Source of the DNA: an uncultured Gemmatimonadales bacterium
GTDB taxonomy: Bacteria > Gemmatimonadota > Gemmatimonadetes > Gemmatimonadales > GWC2-71-9
NCBI GenBank assembly: GCA_963844035.1
Contig: CAWJMT010000003.1
Location: forward strand, 224,001-288,000
Direction of reading: 5' to 3'
DNA: 64,000 nucleotides
Shown here: positions 8,332 to 28,400 of the stretch, in pieces
How the letters are laid out: the number at the start of each line of letters is the position of its first letter
Position numbering within the stretch: the first letter of the stretch is position 1
Translations under genes and position numbers: made by a program
The notes under the pieces: model-generated
The model's input: the letters and a program-made list of their open reading frames with translations, nothing else
Told to the model about the DNA's origin: nothing
Databases searched by the model: none

Positions 8332-8748
8332 GTGATCAGCTCGACCACCGTGCGCGTGAACTACTCCGAAACCGACCAGATGGGTGTGGTCTATCACGCC
8401 AACTACCTCATCTGGTTCGATCGCGCCCGCACCGAGTTGATGCGCGATACCGGACTGACCTACCGCGCGTTGGAGCAGCAGGGCGTGTACCTCGCCGTGT
8501 CGCAGGTCAAGGTCCGCTATCGCGCCCCGGCGCGCTACGACGATCTGCTGCGCATCCGGTGCTGGGTGCGCGAGCTGCTCTCACGCCAGGTGACATTCGG
8601 GTACGCGGTGGAGCACACGGAAACCAATGCGTTGCTCGCCACCGCCGAGACGGCGCTCATCGCACTCACGCACCAGCACACTCTCGCGCGGATACCCCAG
8701 CATGTTCGCGATCTCCTCACGCCGATTCCGGATCCCGTGCGTCTGTAG
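8332..8748 (+). CDS. Acyl-CoA thioesterase, YbgC/FadM (4HBT) family
   Basis: VRVNYSETDQMGVVYHANYLIWFDRARTE, YRAPARYDD. Confidence 0.9.
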   Translation: MISSTTVRVNYSETDQMGVVYHANYLIWFDRARTELMRDTGLTYRALEQQGVYLAVSQVKVRYRAPARYDDLLRIRCWVRELLSRQVTFGYAVEHTETNALLATAETALIALTHQHTLARIPQHVRDLLTPIPDPVRL

Positions 8749-10764
8749 CGGCGCGCTGCTCGCGGCCGGCCTGGTGTTGGGCCGGTCGCTGGCCGCGCAG
8801 CTGCCGGACGAAACGCTTGTCGGCGAGTTGGCGCGCCTGCTCGCCGCCACCGATGCACGGGTGTTGGATGCGTCGCTGCTCGAGACCGCACTGCGCAGCG
8901 CGGACCGCGGCGTGCGCCGCCAGGCGGCGCTGGCCGCCGGACGCATCGGCGACCCGGCGGCGGTGGCGCTGCTGCTTCCCGCGCTCGCCGACTCCGACGC
9001 GACGGTGCGGGCGAATGCGGCGTTCGCCCTTGGCCTGCTCAAGAGCAGCAGCGCGGTGTCCGCCCTGGTCGAGCTGGTGCGCGCCGTTCCGTCGGGCGAG
9101 CAGGACGCGCCCCAGGTGGAAGCAGCAATGGCACTGACCCGGATCGGCGGGGCAGAGGCGGGTCGCGCGCTGCACGACATCCTTGGCAACGGCACGACGC
9201 CGGGCGTCGCCACGCCACGCGCGGTGAGCGCGGCGCTGGTCGCGGTATGGCGGCTCGAGGACCGGGGCTTCGTGGGCTCGATCACCGGGTATGCCGAAGA
9301 TCCCGATCCCGTCGTACGCTGGCATGCCCTGTACACGTTGGGTCGCCTCGGCGCCCCCAAGGGAGCCGCGACGCTGGTTGGCGGGCTGCGGGACCCGGAT
9401 CCGCGCGTGCGCGCCGTTGCGGCGCGCGGGCTGACGCGCGCGCTGCTCGACAGCGCCCGTATTCAGTGGAAGAGCGTGGCGGACGCGCTCCAACCGCTGC
9501 TCACCGACACGGCGAGCGCGGTGCGCGTCAACGCGCTGCGTGCCCTGGCCGCTGTGGGCGACAGCAGTGTGGCGGCGAGCGTGACCTCACACGTCGCCGA
9601 CCTCGATATCAACGTCGCCGTGCAGGCCGAAACGACGTTGGGCGTGCTGGGTGGTAGCAGCGGCCGTCGCGGCCCTCGCGGCACGAGCGCAGAGCCCCGT
9701 CTTTGCCTTGCGGCGGCAGGCCATCATCGCCCTGGCACAGGCTGACCGCGCGGCGGGCGTGGCCGCTGCCGCGGGCGTCGCGGCCGATGCCGATTGGCGC
9801 TGGCGCTCGGTTGCCGCCGAGGCGTTCGGTGCGGCGCGCGAGCGCGACCGGCTGGAAGGCCAGCTCGCCGATCCCGACGGACGAGTCGTGGCGCAGGCAC
9901 TGCAAGCGTTGGGGCGCGTCGTTCCTGTACCCGATACCGCGCTGGCGCGCCGCGCCCGGGCGCTGCTCGAGCACGCCGATCCCGCGGTGCGCAGTGTCGC
10001 CGCTGACCTGCTCGCGAGCCAGCCCGTGATCGCTGATGTCGACGTGCTGATCGCCGCGTACGGCCGCGCGACGGGCGACCCGTTCAACGACGCTCGTCTC
10101 TCGGCGGTGGCTGCCCTCGGAGCGATCGCGCGCACCAGCGCCGAGGCAAGGCTGCGAGGTCGCCACCCGTTTCGTGGGCGTGGTGCCCCGGCCCGACGAC
10201 TTCCTGGTCCGCCGGCTCGCCACCGAGCGTCTGCCCGATGCCGCGGCGCAGTGGGGCCCCGCCGCCCCGATCGCCACCGGCCGCACCGACGCCGACTATC
10301 GCGACGTCGCGCGCCGCTACCTGGCCCCGGCCCTCGCCGGGCAGCCACTGCCGCGGGCGACGATCGAGACTGATCGGGGGACCCTGGTCGTCGAGCTGCT
10401 GTCCGACCAGGCTCCATTGACCGTTGCCGCATTCTTATCCCTTGTCGACCGGCGCTACTTTGACGGATCGCGCTGGCATCGTGCCGTCCCGAACTTTGTG
10501 ATTCAAGACGGGGATCCCCGCGGCGACGGATGGGGTGGTCCCGGGTTCGTGCTCCGCGACGAGGTGAATCCCACGCCCTATCAGACCGGCACTGTCGGGA
10601 TCGCACTCTCCGGGCCCGACACCGGCGGCAGTCAGTTCTTTATTACGCATTCTCCGCAGCCCCGCCTCGACGGCATCTACACGGTGTTCGGACGCGTGGT
10701 CACCGGGTTGCCGGTGCTCGCCGGGATCGCGCAAGGCGACCGGATCCGCAGTATTCATCGGTGA
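8737..10764 (+). CDS. Secreted HEAT-repeat protein with C-terminal cyclophilin PPIase (2-3 frameshifts; start uncertain)
   Basis: Signal peptide ..SLAA|Q; repeated VRxxAAxALG units; C-terminal WHRAVPNFVIQDGDPRGDGWGGPG, GSQFFITH, YTVFGRV. Confidence 0.82.
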
Positions 10765-10792
10765 CATTCACCTTCTCCTTCGGGTTTAACTA

Positions 10793-11508
10793 TTGAATCG
10801 CCAACGGCTTGTGCTTGACCGCCTCCGCGCCCTGTCCTACATTGCCGCCGGTACGCTCGTGGCGGCGTGTCCGCCGCACGTCGCCCCGTTGGTGCCGGTG
10901 CCGCTCACGCCCGCCGATCGGCAGCAGGCCTTGGAGTGGACCGAGGGCACGGTGCCCGGTCACCGGACGGCGATTCGCTTCAAGTTTGAGTTTCAGGACG
11001 ATCGGCGGCACTGGGCGGGGCGGGGCACCGCCCGGGTAGCGCCACCCGATTCACTGCGGTTCGACTATACGGGACCGCTCGGTCTCGGCGCCGGTGCCGC
11101 AGTCGTGGTGGGCGATTCGACGCGTGTGGGCCGACCCGGAGGAGAACTTTCGCTCTCTGGTGCCGGGCATCCCGATGCTGTGGGCCTCGCTCGGGATCGT
11201 CCGGCCCCCCGCTCGCCGACGCGCGGGTGGAGAGTGGTGGTGAAGCGCCGCGCACGATCTGGCGGTTCGCCCGCGCCGGCGACACGCTGGCCTACGTCGC
11301 TACCGATGGCGTGCCGCGTGTGCTCGAGGCGGAGTGGCGGCGGGAGGGAAAGGTGCTGGCACGCAGCCGGACGGAGCTCGGAGGCCGCGCGTTGCCGGCG
11401 AAAGCGCGTGTGGATTTTCCGGAGGCGCCCGCTCGTTTTGAACTTACCGTGGTGGGAGTGGATACGACGGCCGAATTTGCCCCGGCGCTCTGGCGCAGTC
11501 GCCGCTAG
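10793..11508 (+). CDS. Hypothetical lipoprotein, possibly LolB-like fold (frameshifted)
   Basis: Lipobox LVAAC; GRGTARVAPPDSLRFD; continues in the 11227..11508 frame. Confidence 0.55.
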
Positions 11509-11974
11509 CGCCGTCACCGTCGTGCTGGCAGGCTGCCTCTACGGCTTTGCCGGCGGCGGCCTCCCGAACATCAAGACCGTGGCGATCATTCCCTTCGACA
11601 ACCAGACGCCGGAGCCGGCGCTCACCAAGGACGTCAATGACGCGATCACGGACGCCATCCAGGGGCGCCTCGGGCTGCGCTCCGCGGCGCAATCCAATGC
11701 CGATGCTGTCGTCCGCGGGCGGGTCGTGCATTACGAAGCGAATGTCCCCATCGCGTTCCAGCCGGGCGTAGGCCGCGCCGACGTGACGCAGCGGCAGGTC
11801 CAGATCACCGTCGACGTCGAAATCGTCAATCAGAAGAGCGGCAAGACCCTGTGGCAACGCAACGGACTCCTGGTGGTAGGCGAGTACACACCGCCGCAGG
11901 AAGCCCAGGGGCGCAAGATCGCGCTCCAGAAACTCGAGAACGACATCGTGGACGGAGCGCAGTCGCAGTGGTGA
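11477..11974 (+). CDS. lptE: LptE-like LPS assembly lipoprotein
   Basis: Lipobox VLAGC followed by LYGFAGGGLP, IKTVAIIPFDNQT, ADAVVRGRV, C-terminal SQW. Confidence 0.7.
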   Translation: MPRRSGAVAASAVTVVLAGCLYGFAGGGLPNIKTVAIIPFDNQTPEPALTKDVNDAITDAIQGRLGLRSAAQSNADAVVRGRVVHYEANVPIAFQPGVGRADVTQRQVQITVDVEIVNQKSGKTLWQRNGLLVVGEYTPPQEAQGRKIALQKLENDIVDGAQSQW

Positions 11975-12345
11975 GCGCCGCAGCGCGGCGCGCGCGGATC
12001 CGCGGAGCGAGCTCGACGGGGTGCCTCGTCTCGCTCCTGCTGTTTGTGGCGGTGCTCTACTACGGCGTGAACATCGGCGAGGTGTACTTCCGCTACTACC
12101 GCTTGCTTGACGAGATGGAATCGCAGGCCCGGATCGCCGCCGGCCTCGACAACGGCACCATCGCGCGGCGCGTCGCGGCGGCGGTGGACGACATCGGCAT
12201 CCCCGATTCGGCGCGCAACGTCGTGGTGCGCCGCACGCTTTCCCCCCGCGAGATCACGATCTCGACCGACTACAGCGAGACCGTGGTTCTTCCCTTTTTC
12301 ACACACACCTTCGTCTTCCATCCTAAGGCCACGCAGCCGCTCTAG
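11971..12345 (+). CDS. Hypothetical single-TM protein (DUF4845-like)
   Basis: [26 protein letters not shown] pilin-like N-terminus; GTGA overlap with the upstream gene. Confidence 0.6.
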
Positions 12346-12367
12346 CGCGTGGGCCGTCGCTGGCGGC

Positions 12368-13634
12368 ATGCTGCTGATCTCGGCGCTTGCCGGCGCGGCG
12401 GGACACGGGGATGACGTCGGACGTTTCTTCATCGTCCTGGCAGTCATGCTCGTGGCAGGGACGTTCTCGGCGGCGCTGTGTGAGCGGCTGGGGCAGCCCG
12501 GCGTGGTGGGCGAGCTGGTGGCGGGAATGCTCTTGGGCTCGCTCCACATCTTCCCAACGGCCCCGGAAGATTCGCTGACCGGCACCTTCCGGGTCCTCGC
12601 CCACGTCGGGGTGGCTGTCCTCTTGTTCGAAATCGGCCTCGAGACCCGTCTCGATGCGATGGCGCGCGTCGGCACGGCCGCGACGTCCGTGGCCGTCGCA
12701 GGCGTGATCGTGCCGTTCGGGCTGGGGTTCCTGTACTGGATGTCTACGCCGAGCGGCTTCGAGCACGCAGTTGCGAACCACGTCATGACGGCAGTGTTCG
12801 TGGGCGCTACGCTGACCGCGACGTCGATCGGCATCACCGCTCGGGTCTTGACCGACTTGAAGTGCCTGCACACCGTCGAGGCGCGGGTCGTGCTGGGGGC
12901 AGCCGTCATTGACGACGTGCTGGGCCTCATCCTCCTCGGTGTCATCTCCGGGGTGGCGGCCGGCGCGGCGGTGAGTTTGCTCGGTGTCGTGCGCACCCTC
13001 GCGGTGGCGGTCGGGTTCCTGGTGGCGGCCATCGTGGTCGGCCGCGCCGTGGCGCCGTGGCTCTTCGGAGGCGTAGCGCGGATTCGCCTGCGGGGGGTCC
13101 TGCTCGTGTCCGCCTTTGCCTTTTTGCTGATCCTCGGGGCCGTCGCCGCCAGCGCCGGATCCGCCCTGATCCTGGGGGCGTTTGCCGCCGGGATCATCGT
13201 GTGCGAGCACCAAACAGTCCAAGGTGATTCAAGAGCGCATGAGGCCTGTGGCCGACATCTTCACGCCGGTGTTCTTCCTGAGCATCGGGGCCGCGGTAGA
13301 CCTGGGGGCGTGGAATCCGTTCAGTCCCGCCGGGAGAGGCGTGCTCTTGATCGGTGTCATCCTGTTCGCGATCGCCGTCCTGGGAAAGCTCGCCAGCGGC
13401 TGGGCAGCTCCGTGGCTGCGCTTCAACCGTTGGGCGGTGGGGATCGGCATGGTCCCCCGCGGCGAAGTAGGGCTGATCTTCGCGCAAATCGGCGTCACCA
13501 CGGGAATTCTCACCAACCACTTGTTCAGCGCGATCCTGCTCATGGTGCTTACGACCACGCTCGTGGCGCCGCCACTCCTCACGTGGGCGTTCGGCCGCTG
13601 GGGCAGCACGACGCTGACGGAGCCGGCCCAGTGA
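12368..13634 (+). CDS. Cation:proton antiporter (CPA2/NapA type; frameshift ~13200)
   Basis: [63 protein letters not shown]. Confidence 0.9.
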
Positions 13635-14114
13635 GCACCGCCGGCAAGATCCGCAGTGTTGCCGAGGCGACGGCGTGGCGTGCGGCGCTCTCCGGACCGC
13701 TCGTGTTTACGAACGGCGTGTTCGATCTCCTGCACGTCGGTCATGTGGCGCTGCTCGAGGCCGCACGAGCGGAGGGCGCCGCGCTGGTGGTTGGCGTGAA
13801 CAGCGACCGGTCGGTGCGTCGCCTCGGCAAAGGCGCCGATCGTCCGCGTGGTGCCGCAGCAGCAGCGCGCGCGCCTCGTGGCCGCGCTCGCGTGCGTGGA
13901 CGGTGTGGTGCTGTTCGACGACGAGACGCCGCTGGCCCTCATTCGCGGGCTGCGGCCCGACGTGTTGGTGAAGGGGGCGGACTACACGCGCGCTGCCATC
14001 GTCGGTGCCGACGACGTGGAAGGGTGGGGCGGGCGCGTGGTGCGCGTTCCCCTCGTGCCCGGCTTTTCCACGACGGACCTGCTCTCACGCCTGCGAGGAG
14101 GAGCGTCGCAGTGA
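13631..14114 (+). CDS. rfaE2: D-glycero-beta-D-manno-heptose 1-phosphate adenylyltransferase (frameshift ~13845)
   Basis: [47 protein letters not shown]. Confidence 0.9.
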
Positions 14115-14740
14115 AGCTGTTGATCGCCACACGCAACGAAGGCAAGGCCCGGGAGATCCGCGACCTGTTTGTCGGCCTTCCGTTCGAGCTCGTGTTTCCC
14201 AACGATCAAAAGTTCCTCGAGCCTCTGCCCGAGGAAGCCGACGTCGAGCACGGCGCAACGTTTGTCGAAAACGCGGCCGCCAAGGCGCGCTACTTTGCGC
14301 GCCGCAGCGGAATGGTCACCGTCGCGGAGGACTCGGGGATCGAGGTCGATGCCTTGAACGGCGCGCCCGGGGTGCACTCGGCACGGTTCGCGGCGCTGTA
14401 CGGGGACAAAGGACAGGAGACGGGCGACGGGGCCAACAACGCGCTCCTGCTCAAGCGCCTGGAGGGAGTGCCCGAGGAACAGCGCACGGCACGGTACCGC
14501 TGCGTGGTAGCGTATCTCGAGACGCCGGTCGGGGCGCCGCAGCTCGTTGAGGCGACCTGCGAGGGGCGTATTCTGACCGCCCCGGTGGGCAACGGCGGCT
14601 TTGGCTACGACCCGTACTTCTGGTCACTCGATCTGCGCATGAGCTTCGGCGAGGCGCCGGAAGCGGCCAAACAGCGGGTGTCGCACCGCGGCCGCGCGTT
14701 TCGGGCGCTCATCGAGGTACTGGTGCGGCGGTATGCGTAA
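14111..14740 (+). CDS. rdgB: Non-canonical purine NTP pyrophosphatase (RdgB/HAM1)
   Basis: [53 protein letters not shown]. Confidence 0.93.
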
Positions 14741-14794
14741 GGAGGCGGTTGGAACCGCCGGATGTCGTGACTAAGTTGCCTTCGCTGTCGTGAA

Positions 14795-14868
14795 CGGGGC
14801 GTAGCGCAGTCCGGTAGCGCGTCTGGTTTGGGACCAGAAGGTCCCGGGTTCAAATCCCGGCGCCCCGA
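14795..14868 (+). tRNA. tRNA-Pro (TGG)
   Basis: CGGGGCG..CGCCCCG acceptor, anticodon arm TCTGG-TTTGGGA-CCAGA, GGTTCAAATCC T-loop; CCA not encoded. Confidence 0.96.
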
Positions 14869-15358: not shown

Positions 15359-15403
15359 CCACCCGCAACGATTCTCCACCGGACCTAAGACTTGCGAGTG
15401 CCC

Positions 15404-15958
15404 ATGATGCTTGGCCGTGCGGTAGCCACGACGCTCCTTTTAGTCTGTTTCCTGGCGCCCATCAGCGCTGCTCAGGATGCGGCGATCCCTCAGGCGGCAT
15501 TCCTCGATTCAAGCCCAACGGGCCCCATCCGCCCCGGGGCCCCGTGCCATGTCGATCGGATCGTGGATGGAGACACGATGGAGTGCGCTGGCACCGGGCC
15601 GGTTCGCCTCATCGGAATTGACGCGCCGGAGCTGAGCCAATCGCCCTTCGGAGCCCAGGCGGCGGCCGCCCTCGCCGGCTTTGTCCCCCCTGGCTCGGAT
15701 GTGCTGCTCGAATCGGACGTCGAGGCCCGCGACAAGTACGGTCGCCTGCTCGCCTACGTCTGGTATGATGGAGGGCTCGTGAACTGGCGCATGGTCCGTG
15801 CGGGAGTGGCGGTACTGCTTACCTTTCCACCCAATGTCCAGTACGCGGCGTCGCTGGTGGATGCGGAGCACCGCGCCCAGGGTGAGAAGCGCGGCTTGTG
15901 GGCCACGGGAGGGTTTGACTGTCGGCCCAGCGACCGGCGGCACGGCCACTGCGACTGA
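15404..15958 (+). CDS. Secreted thermonuclease (SNase) family protein
   Basis: Signal peptide; RIVDGDT, VRLIGIDAPE, RDKYGRLLAYVW, KRGLW. Confidence 0.92.
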   Translation: MMLGRAVATTLLLVCFLAPISAAQDAAIPQAAFLDSSPTGPIRPGAPCHVDRIVDGDTMECAGTGPVRLIGIDAPELSQSPFGAQAAAALAGFVPPGSDVLLESDVEARDKYGRLLAYVWYDGGLVNWRMVRAGVAVLLTFPPNVQYAASLVDAEHRAQGEKRGLWATGGFDCRPSDRRHGHCD

Positions 15959-16191
15959 CGGATCAAATGGTGGGCCTCAGGGTATCGTGGAGGCTCACTC
16001 GAGCACTTGCCTGTTACAATTAAGACGTTGCCGCAGTCGCGGAGTCCGCAAAGCGTGCGGCTGGTCTCGCGTACACAGTATTGCGTCCAATGGATTGCAC
16101 GAAACTCCTGGAAGGGGAGCATGAGATGCGCAAGGGGGATAGTACCAAAGTGCAGTGCCCGGCCGGTCCGAATCGCTGGTACGTTTTCACT

Positions 16192-17406
16192 ATGACCACG
16201 CATCCCGATACTCCGATCCTCCTGGGATTGAGGCGGTCTGCCCTCTTCAAGGCCGCCTTCGGCGTTCTATTCCTGGCCGTTGCGACCCCCCTTCCTGCAC
16301 AGCGACCGCAGCCGTCATGGCTGTTGGAGTTCACGGCCTCGCGGAAGGACCCGATCGACAGTCCGCTGTTCGGAGGATTCGGGATTACGCATTACCGGCG
16401 TGCCTTCGGGCTGCGTCTGGGAGTTCAGGGGCACTTCAATGGCGGCGGCGGCACCGTCTGTGACCAGTTTGGGTGCCAGAACCCCGTCAGCGCCCAACTC
16501 GACGCTTGGACGGCGGACGCGGACCTCATGTTCGAGCCCCTGCGTGCGGTGCCCGTCCTCAAGAAGCTCCTGCTGGGTTTCTCTCCTTATGGTTTCGTGG
16601 GAATTGGCGGGTATGGTGTGCGGGTGGACAACGGTGCCGATTCGAGCATCTCCACCCTGAGGTACGGGGCCGGCCTGCGTCACGATCTGGTCGGGCCGCT
16701 CGGGGTTCAGGCCGAAGCCCGTTACCGGCAACCACTCTCGGGTGACAACCAGAGCTCGGTGATCTTGAAGGAGAAGCTGGTATACAGCGTCGGCCTCACG
16801 ATTGGGTTTGGCGGCAAGAAGTCCAAGAAGAGCGCCGCGCCGGTGGCGGCGGCCCCGCCCAAGACGGTGGCGAAGCCAACGGCGGCGCCACGCGCTCCCG
16901 TCGTCGTCAGTTCAGAAGCCGCGGATCGATTCGCGTCCACCGTCTTGGACCTTGCCGAGAGTTACCTCGACAAGCCGTACGCGTATGGCGGGGCGAGTCC
17001 GTACGGTGGCTTCGACGCCGGAGGCTTCGTCCAATACGTGTTCGCGCGCGCAGGCACGCGGCTCCCGCGTACCGCGAAAGAGATGTCCACCATGGGCGAC
17101 GCCCTCTCGCTGAAGGTCGGGTCGCTCCGCCCGGGTGACCTGCTGTTCTTCGCCAGCGACGGCTCGAAGATCGACCATGTCGCGATCTACGCCGGGCACG
17201 AGCGCATCATCCATGCGAGCGCGAGCGGCGGCGGGGTGCGCTACGATACCCTGGGTGAAGGACCGCGCGGTCGGTGGTTCACCGACCATCTGGTCTCGGC
17301 TACGCGGGTGACCGGAACCATAGGCGCGGCCCCCGTGGTCGATCCGGCAACTGGCAAGACACTCGATCCGCCGGATGTGGCTCCGCCGGCGACCAGGGCA
17401 CAATAA
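16192..17406 (+). CDS. OM beta-barrel + NlpC/P60 (C40) domain protein; catalytic Cys replaced by Ala
   Basis: Signal peptide, amphipathic strands (SPYGFVGIGG, YGAGLR, VQAEARY, YSVGLTIGF), K/A/P linker, then PYAYGG..GFDAGGFVQYVF..LPRTA..RPGDLLFF..HVAIYAG..IIHAS. Confidence 0.85.
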   Translation: MTTHPDTPILLGLRRSALFKAAFGVLFLAVATPLPAQRPQPSWLLEFTASRKDPIDSPLFGGFGITHYRRAFGLRLGVQGHFNGGGGTVCDQFGCQNPVSAQLDAWTADADLMFEPLRAVPVLKKLLLGFSPYGFVGIGGYGVRVDNGADSSISTLRYGAGLRHDLVGPLGVQAEARYRQPLSGDNQSSVILKEKLVYSVGLTIGFGGKKSKKSAAPVAAAPPKTVAKPTAAPRAPVVVSSEAADRFASTVLDLAESYLDKPYAYGGASPYGGFDAGGFVQYVFARAGTRLPRTAKEMSTMGDALSLKVGSLRPGDLLFFASDGSKIDHVAIYAGHERIIHASASGGGVRYDTLGEGPRGRWFTDHLVSATRVTGTIGAAPVVDPATGKTLDPPDVAPPATRAQ

Positions 17407-18458
17407 TGAAACACACCATCGTGCTCGGCGCGGCCCTCGCCGCGCTCCTGGGGTTCGGTTCAGACCGGCAGCCGCACAGGAGCAAGCTCCTCCTCCTGAA
17501 AGCGGCGCGCCCCGCCGTGGATAGCGTGCGTCCGGCGGTAGACAGCGTGCGTCCAACCCTCGAGACCGCGCGCCCCGCGCCGGACAGCGTGCGTTTCGCT
17601 CCTGACTACGTGCCCCCGGCCGTCAGAACCGAAGCTGACCTCGCTCCGGCAACGAGTGTGGCCGAGGCTACCAGCGTACTCGGCTTTACGGTCTCGACAT
17701 CAGGGACTGCCCGCGACACGCTGGGGCTGCTGATCTCCCCGGTTGTTCCCGGGGGCGCCGGCGACCGTGGGGGTATTGATCCGGGCAATCGCCTGGCTGA
17801 GGTGAACAACGTGAACCTCAGGATTGCGCCGGCGGACATCGGCCGGCGCGAGCCTGCCGAAGGCGCGATGCGTGCGCTGGCGAGCACCCTACGGACTGTA
17901 CGGCCGGGTGAGTGGGTCAGGATCCGCCTGTTCGGGGGCGGCCGGTATCGCACAGTGGCGATCCAAACGCCGCGCGCGGACACGACGCCCGCGGGCGTGG
18001 GAGCCGCTCCCTCCAGCCTGCAACGCGTCGTGGACGGGATCGGCAGCCTGCGGGGGCAGCTCGATCAGTTGATGCAGGCGCAATCGGTGCCCGTGCCGCG
18101 GGACACGCTGCTGCGTGCGGAGCGCGAGCTTGGCGCCATCCAGCGCCGCTTGAAGGCGGCGCAGCTCGCACCCCGGAACATCGACAACACCGTTGGCAGC
18201 CTGCCGGGCCTGCGCGTTGCGGCGGTCGCGGCCGAGATGAAGGACTACTTCGGCGAGGGAAGCGAGGGTGGTCTCCTCGTTCTCGAGTGCGACATCAGCT
18301 GGGATCCGCTCCGAAACGGCGACGTCATTCTTCGGGTCAACGACGAGCCCGCGAACCTCGACCGGTTACGCGTGGCCCTCGACCCGCAGCGTGAGAGCCG
18401 CATCGACTTCCTGCGCCGTGGGCGGTACATGATGGTCACGCTTCACCCGCGCGAATAA
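17406..18458 (+). CDS. Secreted PDZ-domain protein (two PDZ-like units, coiled coil, no protease domain seen)
   Basis: TAATG overlap; LGFTVS..GLLISPVVPGGAGDRGGIDPGNRLAEVN; GLLVL..LRNGDVILRVND..LRRG. Confidence 0.75.
   Translation: MKHTIVLGAALAALLGFGSDRQPHRSKLLLLKAARPAVDSVRPAVDSVRPTLETARPAPDSVRFAPDYVPPAVRTEADLAPATSVAEATSVLGFTVSTSGTARDTLGLLISPVVPGGAGDRGGIDPGNRLAEVNNVNLRIAPADIGRREPAEGAMRALASTLRTVRPGEWVRIRLFGGGRYRTVAIQTPRADTTPAGVGAAPSSLQRVVDGIGSLRGQLDQLMQAQSVPVPRDTLLRAERELGAIQRRLKAAQLAPRNIDNTVGSLPGLRVAAVAAEMKDYFGEGSEGGLLVLECDISWDPLRNGDVILRVNDEPANLDRLRVALDPQRESRIDFLRRGRYMMVTLHPRE
17507..17594 (+). repeat. Degenerate 21-nt coding tandem repeat x4
   Basis: Encodes RPAVDSV RPAVDSV RPTLETA RPAPDSV. 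Confidence 0.8.
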
Positions 18459-23353: not shown

Positions 23354-23429
23354 GCGTCTGGGGGACCCGGTGGTGGCGCCCGGCAAAACGGGGGCTGGTT
23401 GAGGGCGTATCTTCAAGAACGAGACCCCC

Positions 23430-23502
23430 TTGACTCAGGTCCACCGGCCCGGTTAGCATTGGCGTCTCGCTACGAGTTTTTCGTGTAGCAGCTCTTTGAG
23501 AA
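23430..23502 (+). promoter_or_regulatory. rrn promoter and boxA antitermination site
   Basis: TTGACT(23430)-18 nt-TAGCAT(23454); boxA GCTCTTTGAGAA at 23491. Confidence 0.7.
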
Positions 23503-23643
23503 TTGATGATCGAGCGTGTGGAGTGCGGCCCCGATTGAGCGGTGCGTGGTCAGACACGTGCCGTGAGGGGTTTGACTCTGAATTGTGATAAACGGACGAC
23601 ATAGTACCAGTCGTTCTGTTCGAGCTGTTCGAACTACTTCTAA

Positions 23644-25192
<1,549 letters not shown>

Positions 25193-25278
25193 GGAATGCC
25201 GAGTAAGCTCCGATCGCAAGATTGGGGATCGAAAGGCTTCTGGTGTCGCCCGCACTCTCCACACTCGATCATCAAGAC

Positions 25279-25344
25279 TTCAGGTGTCAGGTTTCAGGTT
25301 TCAGGTGTCAGGGTTTTTCTGACACCTGACACCTGACACCTGAA
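25279..25344. repeat. Heptamer inverted tandem-repeat hairpin in ITS
   Basis: (TCAGGT[G/T])x4 then (CACCTGA)x3. Confidence 0.85.
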
Positions 25345-25356
25345 CACCCGCAGTTC

Positions 25357-25369
25357 AGCTCTTTGACAA
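25357..25369 (+). promoter_or_regulatory. Spacer boxA
   Basis: AGCTCTTTGACAA, matching the leader boxA. Confidence 0.75.
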
Positions 25370-25420
25370 CTGATGAGTGGTGTGTTGTAGTGTCGAGGAA
25401 TCACCACTGAGAGAGCACTT

Positions 25421-28400
<2,980 letters not shown>

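Follow-up and report, generated by a model that had tools for sequence, protein, structure and literature searches.

The gene at positions 16192–17406 of the window (the whole 64,000-nucleotide stretch of DNA from an uncultured Gemmatimonadales bacterium that was analysed; all features described here lie on its plus strand) encodes an OmpA-type β-barrel carrying an NlpC/P60 domain, likely periplasmic and inactive, in which alanine stands in place of the catalytic cysteine. The cysteine is absent throughout a clade of homologs whose γ-D-Glu pocket has decayed, and the protein ends in a conserved motif that is predicted to fill its own active-site cleft. A gene for a PDZ protein follows directly. 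The pair likely serves in docking or regulation and not as a wall anchor; our best explanation, in which we place somewhat less than even confidence, is that of a self-plugged pseudo-peptidase that holds the PDZ protein in place at the outer membrane and whose tail is the contact point or switch. The conserved tail motif and the linked partner gene are new with respect to an earlier note on this DNA.

Gene and protein architecture

The reading frame is open over 404 residues; an in-frame ATG further upstream, at 16126, would give 426 residues and makes the start codon ambiguous. A signal peptide (16192–16299, read by eye) is predicted to end in PLPA before Gln37 and has no lipobox cysteine, with Ala36 and Gln37 around the predicted cleavage site 92% and 97% conserved in alignment A1. 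A promoter scan found none. Portions of this gene and of the PDZ gene are represented in contigs assembled from RNA runs, contigs being no measure of expression. A search of the Atlas grouped the protein with unnamed Gemmatimonadota clusters.

An AlphaFold2 model built on a 116-row alignment (mean pLDDT 83.9, pTM 0.50) displays eight long strands at residues 43–206 (16318–16809) and a separate NlpC/P60 domain. The top structural matches of the barrel were the N-terminal barrel of OprF (Z 17.8, rmsd 2.4, 130 aligned residues) and OmpA (Z 16.3); the Pfam OMP_b-brl match at residues 58–180 (E 7.9e-5, 23.3 bits) lies under its cut-off of 28.7. The earlier note had proposed an N-terminal barrel within a layout of signal peptide, barrel, linker and periplasmic-type domain, and the model and structural matches bear out both. 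Phe206 (91% conserved in A1) closes the barrel. Cys90 and Cys95 (16459–16476) in the loop between strands 3 and 4, 91% and 92% conserved, likely form a disulfide on the outer face if the topology follows that of OmpA. Since the number of strands is even, the C-terminal domain should emerge on the side of the N-terminus, presumably the periplasm as in OmpA. On this putative periplasmic side, residues 116–133 (16537–16590) form a near-invariant helix-bearing turn between strands 4 and 5 (Pro116, Arg118, Leu126–Leu128 and Gly129–Pro132).

The barrel is followed by a Lys/Ala/Pro linker (residues 207–240, 16810–16911) that is modelled with low confidence and varies between homologs, and then by the NlpC/P60 domain (residues 241–373, 16912–17310). 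The latter matches Pfam NLPC_P60 (PF00877) at residues 261–358 (E 3.9e-23, 81.9 bits, cut-off 23) and is structurally similar to the solved enzyme 7cfl (Z 20.9, rmsd 1.2, 122 aligned residues).

Elsewhere in the window, several genes look frameshifted (about 8600–14800 and 23400–26000), which suggests that the assembly is error-prone; the shadow-ORF pattern at 23400–26000 is presumably that of an rRNA operon. A staphylococcal-nuclease-family gene lies upstream of the barrel gene (15392–15958); it was considered as part of the module and set aside, as it was found only here and in locus L035.

Loss of the nucleophile and decay of the substrate pocket

Bases 17014–17025 read gac gcc gga ggc (Asp275-Ala276-Gly277-Gly278), giving GFDAGG in place of the canonical motif, with Ala276 at the catalytic cysteine position and Gly277 at the serine position (17017–17022); His329 (17176–17178) and His341 (17212–17214) are retained, just as the earlier note had read them. 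Among the best 119 homologs, with the protein itself left out, this position holds Ala in 108, Gly in 10 and Cys in one, the sole aligned Cys belonging to a frameshifted fragment (P0031). All four alanine codons are in use (GCG 48, GCC 36, GCT 5, GCA 2; for glycine GGC 13, GGA 2), as counted over locus ORFs with a barrel score above 120, where five rows have Cys and six were mis-parsed by the motif search. Across 65 clade representatives the position is Ala, Gly or Ser in every one, and the Cys of the Cys-His-His triad is thus absent, while 64 of the 65 still have both His. The suggestions that the nucleophile is lost and that an indel error is unlikely therefore hold for the clade as a whole, with 118 of 119 homologs carrying Ala or Gly. 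Contigs from three RNA runs that span the Ala276 codon show no difference among the rows listed (39 more are unlisted), which is a weak check.

Relaxed selection was looked for in the domain, and purifying selection was seen instead: the median dN/dS is 0.16 (43 disjoint pairs) versus 0.19 for 14 pairs of Cys members, the linker having 0.40 and the barrel 0.145, all by simple Nei–Gojobori counts on GC-rich DNA. Sequencing error and recent pseudogene formation are ruled out by the Ala/Gly state of the homologs, the varied codons and the low dN/dS. Members of the Cys-less clade come from 29 named genomes, each of them titled Gemmatimonadota, and nine of these hold at least two copies; within the phylum the distribution is patchy, with three of the 301 genomes sampled scoring in the range of the clade (G000, G034 and G287). 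One unpublished genome, G157, enters the genome totals and a single locus only and underlies none of the conclusions.

The similar constraint on the barrel, its conserved loop cysteines with their predicted disulfide and its many invariant residues would also suit a protein that works through its barrel and outer loops, as an adhesin or a receptor at the cell surface, with the plugged domain persisting as a stable relic that aids folding or spacing. We regard this as decidedly improbable, because conservation of the dead domain matches that of active ones and includes surface residues specific to the clade (Asp253, Gly310, Gly357 and His366), and no close barrel-only form was found, shorter proteins lying outside the search.

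The state of the catalytic position was mapped onto trees, as the earlier note had proposed. In a domain tree of 201 representatives, from which the Cys and Ser columns had been taken out, the 65 Cys-less rows form one branch among Cys rows (SH-like support 95), and four further Cys-less rows are placed elsewhere; in a full-length tree of 115 loci the main clade comprises 79 rows with support 100. Both trees were computed with FastTree and rooted at the midpoint. Barrel–NlpC/P60 proteins with an intact DCSG motif are common among the more distant matches and loci in Gemmatimonadota, and one of them, L001 (G000, C3:187384), is a paralog in the same genome in which a frameshift splits the barrel from the domain. 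Since such fusions are common and the dead clade is nested among them, the fusion is older than the loss of Cys.

Several other lineages of these proteins were encountered. A tail-less, Cys-intact subfamily (L001, L197, L199, L224 and L030–L034) seems near-universal in family f1, where its profile matched 125 of 125 genomes and some loci were inspected. A Cys-intact fusion (L175) occurs in a genome titled Rhodothermales, by transfer or misbinning. Independent changes from Cys to Ala are seen in other tailed barrel–NlpC/P60 lineages (L187, L189, P0256 and also P0181), of which L187 and L189 have no PDZ neighbour. Proteins such as P0122, P0126, P0137 and P0147 carry three to nine tandem NlpC/P60 repeats, many of them Cys-less (GFDSSG, GFDPSG).

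The γ-D-Glu site of YkfC is formed by Tyr226, Trp228, Asp237, Ser239, Arg255 and Ser257 according to the available text of PMC2954226; these residues were mapped by motif to positions 263, 265, 275, 277, 293 and 295 of the present protein. Of 132 Cys representatives, 131 have the full set of six, as does one of 65 dead ones, the other dead representatives keeping two (14), three (16), four (25) or five (9) of them. The serine at position 277, which in active enzymes binds the α-carboxylate of D-Glu (PMC2954226, available text), is present in 132 of 132 Cys members versus one of 65 dead members, and an aromatic residue at 265 in 131 of 132 versus 13 of 65; the mean net charge of the domain is +4.0 in Cys members versus about 0 (−0.6) in dead ones. 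Asp275 and both His are nearly invariant in the dead clade, and Tyr263 is largely kept, with Phe or Trp in 11 of 65 representatives. The window's copy holds five of the six residues, the serine being the one missing. The γ-D-Glu pocket has thus decayed clade-wide.

These observations bear on the idea that the protein is a non-catalytic peptidoglycan binder linking outer membrane and wall as OmpA does, perhaps only once the tail has been displaced or clipped. The OmpA-like layout, the retention of Tyr263, Asp275, His329 and His341 in most members, and the five pocket residues and Lys-rich linker of the window's own copy all fit such a role, and RipD binds peptidoglycan without cleaving it, its C-terminal region lowering that binding (available text of PMC12067865 and PMC3987819). 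However, Ser277 is lost in 64 of 65 dead members and 30 of the 65 hold just two or three of the six pocket residues; the net charge has fallen, the cleft is predicted to be occupied (see below), and the linkage to a PDZ gene would be left without explanation. The genome, moreover, encodes an ordinary barrel–OmpA protein (L255), one of six PF00691 (OmpA-domain) matches that stand alongside Pal-like domains; none of the six lies at the present gene, whose product has no PF00691 match in Pfam at E 0.1. A substitute for a missing OmpA is thereby ruled out, and we consider a wall tether unlikely. The proposal of the earlier note that an OmpA-like anchor had arisen convergently from a new domain is consequently not supported: Cys-intact fusions pre-exist, the pocket has decayed, the cleft is predicted to be filled and the genome has its own OmpA.

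The C-terminal tail and the PDZ partner

Beyond a variable spacer lies the C-terminal motif L-D-P-P-D-x-A-P (residues 391–398, 17362–17385). Its core is present in 57 of 60 dead tails and 86 of 94 Cys tails of at least 12 residues, shuffled means being 12 and 15, and the AlphaFold2 pLDDT rises to 88 at residues 391–400 between flanking blocks of 62 and 60. When the tail (residues 375–404) was folded against the domain (residues 240–374), the complex scored 0.66, with 0.02 for the best control, a mark that was reached by 116 of 157 solved versus two of 215 mismatched pairs; at least 92% of the contacts agreed between runs, with a partner pLDDT of at least 68. This pass may rest partly on likeness, as the two parts come from one chain and solved peptide-in-cleft complexes exist (for example LytE–IseA, PDB code 8I2E). 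Asp395 is predicted to contact Ala276, His329, Ser343 and Ser345, Asp392 to contact Thr294, Ala295 and Asp328 near Arg293–Ala295, and Ala397 to contact Arg359, Trp362 and Phe363. The model thus predicts that the tail fills the protein's own active-site cleft.

Six alignment columns (363, 297, 345, 346, 294 and 350) discriminate best between the 87 tailed and the 37 tail-less Cys members. They were identified before the complex model was available, and all fall within the predicted 27-residue interface (p 4.5e-5, uncorrected for kinship); the kinship-corrected association between tail and residues comprises three independent pairs and is not significant. Of the 35 dead members in which residue 392 is acidic, 31 retain Arg293, versus 12 of the 21 in which it is not. 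We take the tail to be, probably, a plug that mimics the product and that stems from an ancestral enzyme with autoinhibition. A dead subclade without the PDZ gene ends in Trp-containing C-termini (RW, RWP, RWPW; L072–L074, L077, L080–L082, L127, L130, L132, L135, L146, L148 and L155) and is found mostly between hydrolase-like genes.

The placement of Asp395 beside Ala276 and His329 also allows an enzyme with changed chemistry, in which the two His with Asp395, or a water molecule in the Ala/Gly cavity, would replace the thiol. Retention of both His in 64 of 65 representatives, unlike in RipD (Ala-Ser-Glu), would be expected of such an enzyme, but Cys members have the same tail Asp, most plausibly as an inhibitor, the oxyanion residue Tyr263 is Phe or Trp in 11 of 65 and the substrate pocket has decayed; we deem this reading highly improbable.

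The partner gene (17406–18458) begins on the last base of the upstream stop codon, with which its ATG overlaps (TAATG). Its product comprises a signal peptide, a PDZ domain, a predicted helical hairpin and a second PDZ-like domain. The first PDZ domain is matched by Pfam PDZ (E 5.8e-9), and the best match of the partner in the PDB, DegQ, spans both PDZ domains, the second weakly, as in a tandem PDZ arrangement. No protease family was matched in Pfam or NCBIfam, and a 47-row alignment of the partner is taken up by the signal peptide, the two PDZ domains and the helical middle. An ADLAP sequence (D-x-A-P) in the N-terminal part of the PDZ protein was dropped from consideration, as it lies outside the conserved columns of alignment A2. 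The N-terminus of the partner seems to contain two compensating indels (17450–17510), the shifted frame, unlike the open one, reading PAAAQ as in L038; these are probably assembly errors.

The PDZ gene is single-copy in this genome. Across the family, a place immediately behind the barrel gene is seen for it in 64 of 83 distinct Cys-less loci versus none of 73 Cys loci, 28 of the latter being barrel-plus-tail forms; 12 dead and eight Cys loci with flanks under 600 nt were left out of this count. The gap was at most 68 nt in 47 of 47 measured cases, with overlap in 19, and the upstream neighbours vary by subclade. Among the 19 exceptions, two stem from an independent Cys loss, and eight of the ten in named genomes are accompanied by a PDZ-linked copy in the same genome. 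On the tree, the linkage corresponds to one gain and three losses, with 17 of 79 main-clade rows lacking it. As it arose once, it is not statistically independent of the Cys loss (two independent pairs), and its weight lies in its persistence across the clade. Dead copies in tandem pairs followed by one PDZ gene occur at L043 and L141. Multi-PDZ relatives are frequent in family f2 (58 of 69 matched), and no fused longer PDZ form was found among 7,990 candidates of 757–2160 residues, which is weak evidence. Close stand-alone homologs of the PDZ gene exist in two genomes (L261 in G171 and L262 in G271), in which the barrel–NlpC/P60 protein is a near Cys-intact, tailed form encoded elsewhere.

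Such homologs, together with the presence of the tail motif and tail-binding residues in Cys members, are what one might expect if the dead protein acted on active NlpC/P60 paralogs as a decoy or regulator, either swapping tails in trans or soaking up a tail-specific protease or PDZ adaptor that would otherwise unplug or degrade them. Other NlpC/P60 genes are present in 17 of 17 distinct carrier genomes checked, and C-terminus-dependent turnover of NlpC/P60 enzymes is known (bioRxiv 2020.03.31.019315, available text). A tailed Cys paralog, however, occurs in only five to seven of the 17 genomes (60 of 71 matches examined), and the Cys paralogs of the window's genome, L001 and L002, have no tail, leading us to regard a decoy role as quite improbable.

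The reading that we prefer, of a plugged domain that docks the PDZ protein, would begin with a tail-autoinhibited, barrel-anchored DL-endopeptidase as the ancestor. After the loss of Cys, the cleft may have been kept to hold the tail and not wall peptide, the PDZ protein may bind the exposed end of the tail, and the plugged and unplugged states could then make up a protein-interaction switch that helps to regulate the envelope. Several observations count against docking. The free C-termini are variable and polar, and typical PDZ ligands are unlike this. PDZ-linked copies without the tail motif exist (L060, L100 and L136), in G171 and G271 close homologs of the PDZ gene occur on their own, and the window's copy keeps all but one of its pocket residues. 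A precedent for recognition of an NlpC/P60 C-terminus by a PDZ domain is provided by a docking model of Prc with MepS (bioRxiv 2020.03.31.019315, available text). A broader proposal, which we put forward as possible but on balance doubtful, is that these proteins constitute an undescribed envelope module, in which barrel-anchored wall peptidases are shut by a C-terminal Asp plug mimicking the carboxylates of γ-D-Glu, and a dead, plugged descendant has become a dock at the outer membrane; a dedicated PDZ protein without protease domain would grip or release the plug of this dock, the two genes forming a periplasmic switch.

Comparison with known systems

Dead NlpC/P60 and related domains are already known from RipD and MagC (available text of PMC12067865, PMC6628586, PMC3987819 and PMC10318531). 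Searches of open-access papers turned up neither the barrel fusion nor the tail plug nor the PDZ pairing; tables in subscription papers or supplements could list the fusion. The restraint of wall hydrolases is known from a few models, namely lipoprotein anchors, proteolysis by NlpI–Prc and LbcA–CtpA, the RipA prodomain and IseA. The present family, from a phylum abundant in soil, differs from these in design: its anchor is an integral barrel, and its predicted plug consists of eight C-terminal residues. It also provides a clean case of the passage from enzyme to pseudoenzyme, in which loss of the cysteine, decay of the pocket and acquisition of a new gene partner all map to one branch. The reach of the module is limited by its patchy occurrence in the sampled genomes, and its function is putative.

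In accounts of the mycobacterial protein RipD (Rv1566c), as far as their available text goes, it shares with the barrel protein the NlpC/P60 fold, an alanine at the cysteine position and a C-terminal region that dampens the domain. RipD differs in having lost the catalytic His as well, in binding peptidoglycan and in having no barrel, whereas the barrel protein has both His, a pocket that has decayed across its clade and a linked PDZ gene; against the NCBIfam RipD model (NF033743) it scores 52.9 bits, far under the cut-off of 215. The available text on MagC (DUF1175) of Pseudomonas likewise describes an inactive papain-like cell-wall domain that interacts with peptidoglycan. Its structural match to the present domain (Z 11.1) is distant (17% identity, rmsd 3.7), it is not barrel-fused, and no DUF1175 match was found in the window protein in Pfam at E 0.1.

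OmpA and OprF have in common with the protein the eight-stranded barrel, the Pro/Ala linker and a C-terminal domain that is presumably periplasmic here. The C-terminal domain is, however, NlpC/P60 and not PF00691; a tether between outer membrane and wall would be putative here, and the sequence evidence leans against it.

MepS and PA1198/PA1199 are lipid-anchored. IseA inhibits LytE by blocking its cleft. In the RipA/RipB prodomain (RipA by the available text of its description) and the LytE–IseA complex (PDB codes 8I2E and 8I2F), as in the model proposed here, a peptide segment blocks an NlpC/P60 cleft; the predicted block in the barrel protein differs in being a short C-terminal motif that acts in cis and has outlasted the death of the enzyme. 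MepS (Spr) with NlpI–Prc and PA1198/PA1199 with LbcA–CtpA are, from the available text on them, likewise envelope NlpC/P60 proteins whose C-termini are controlled by PDZ-bearing machines. Those proteins are active enzymes degraded by a PDZ protease, whereas here a barrel anchor carries a dead domain and the linked PDZ protein is protease-less.
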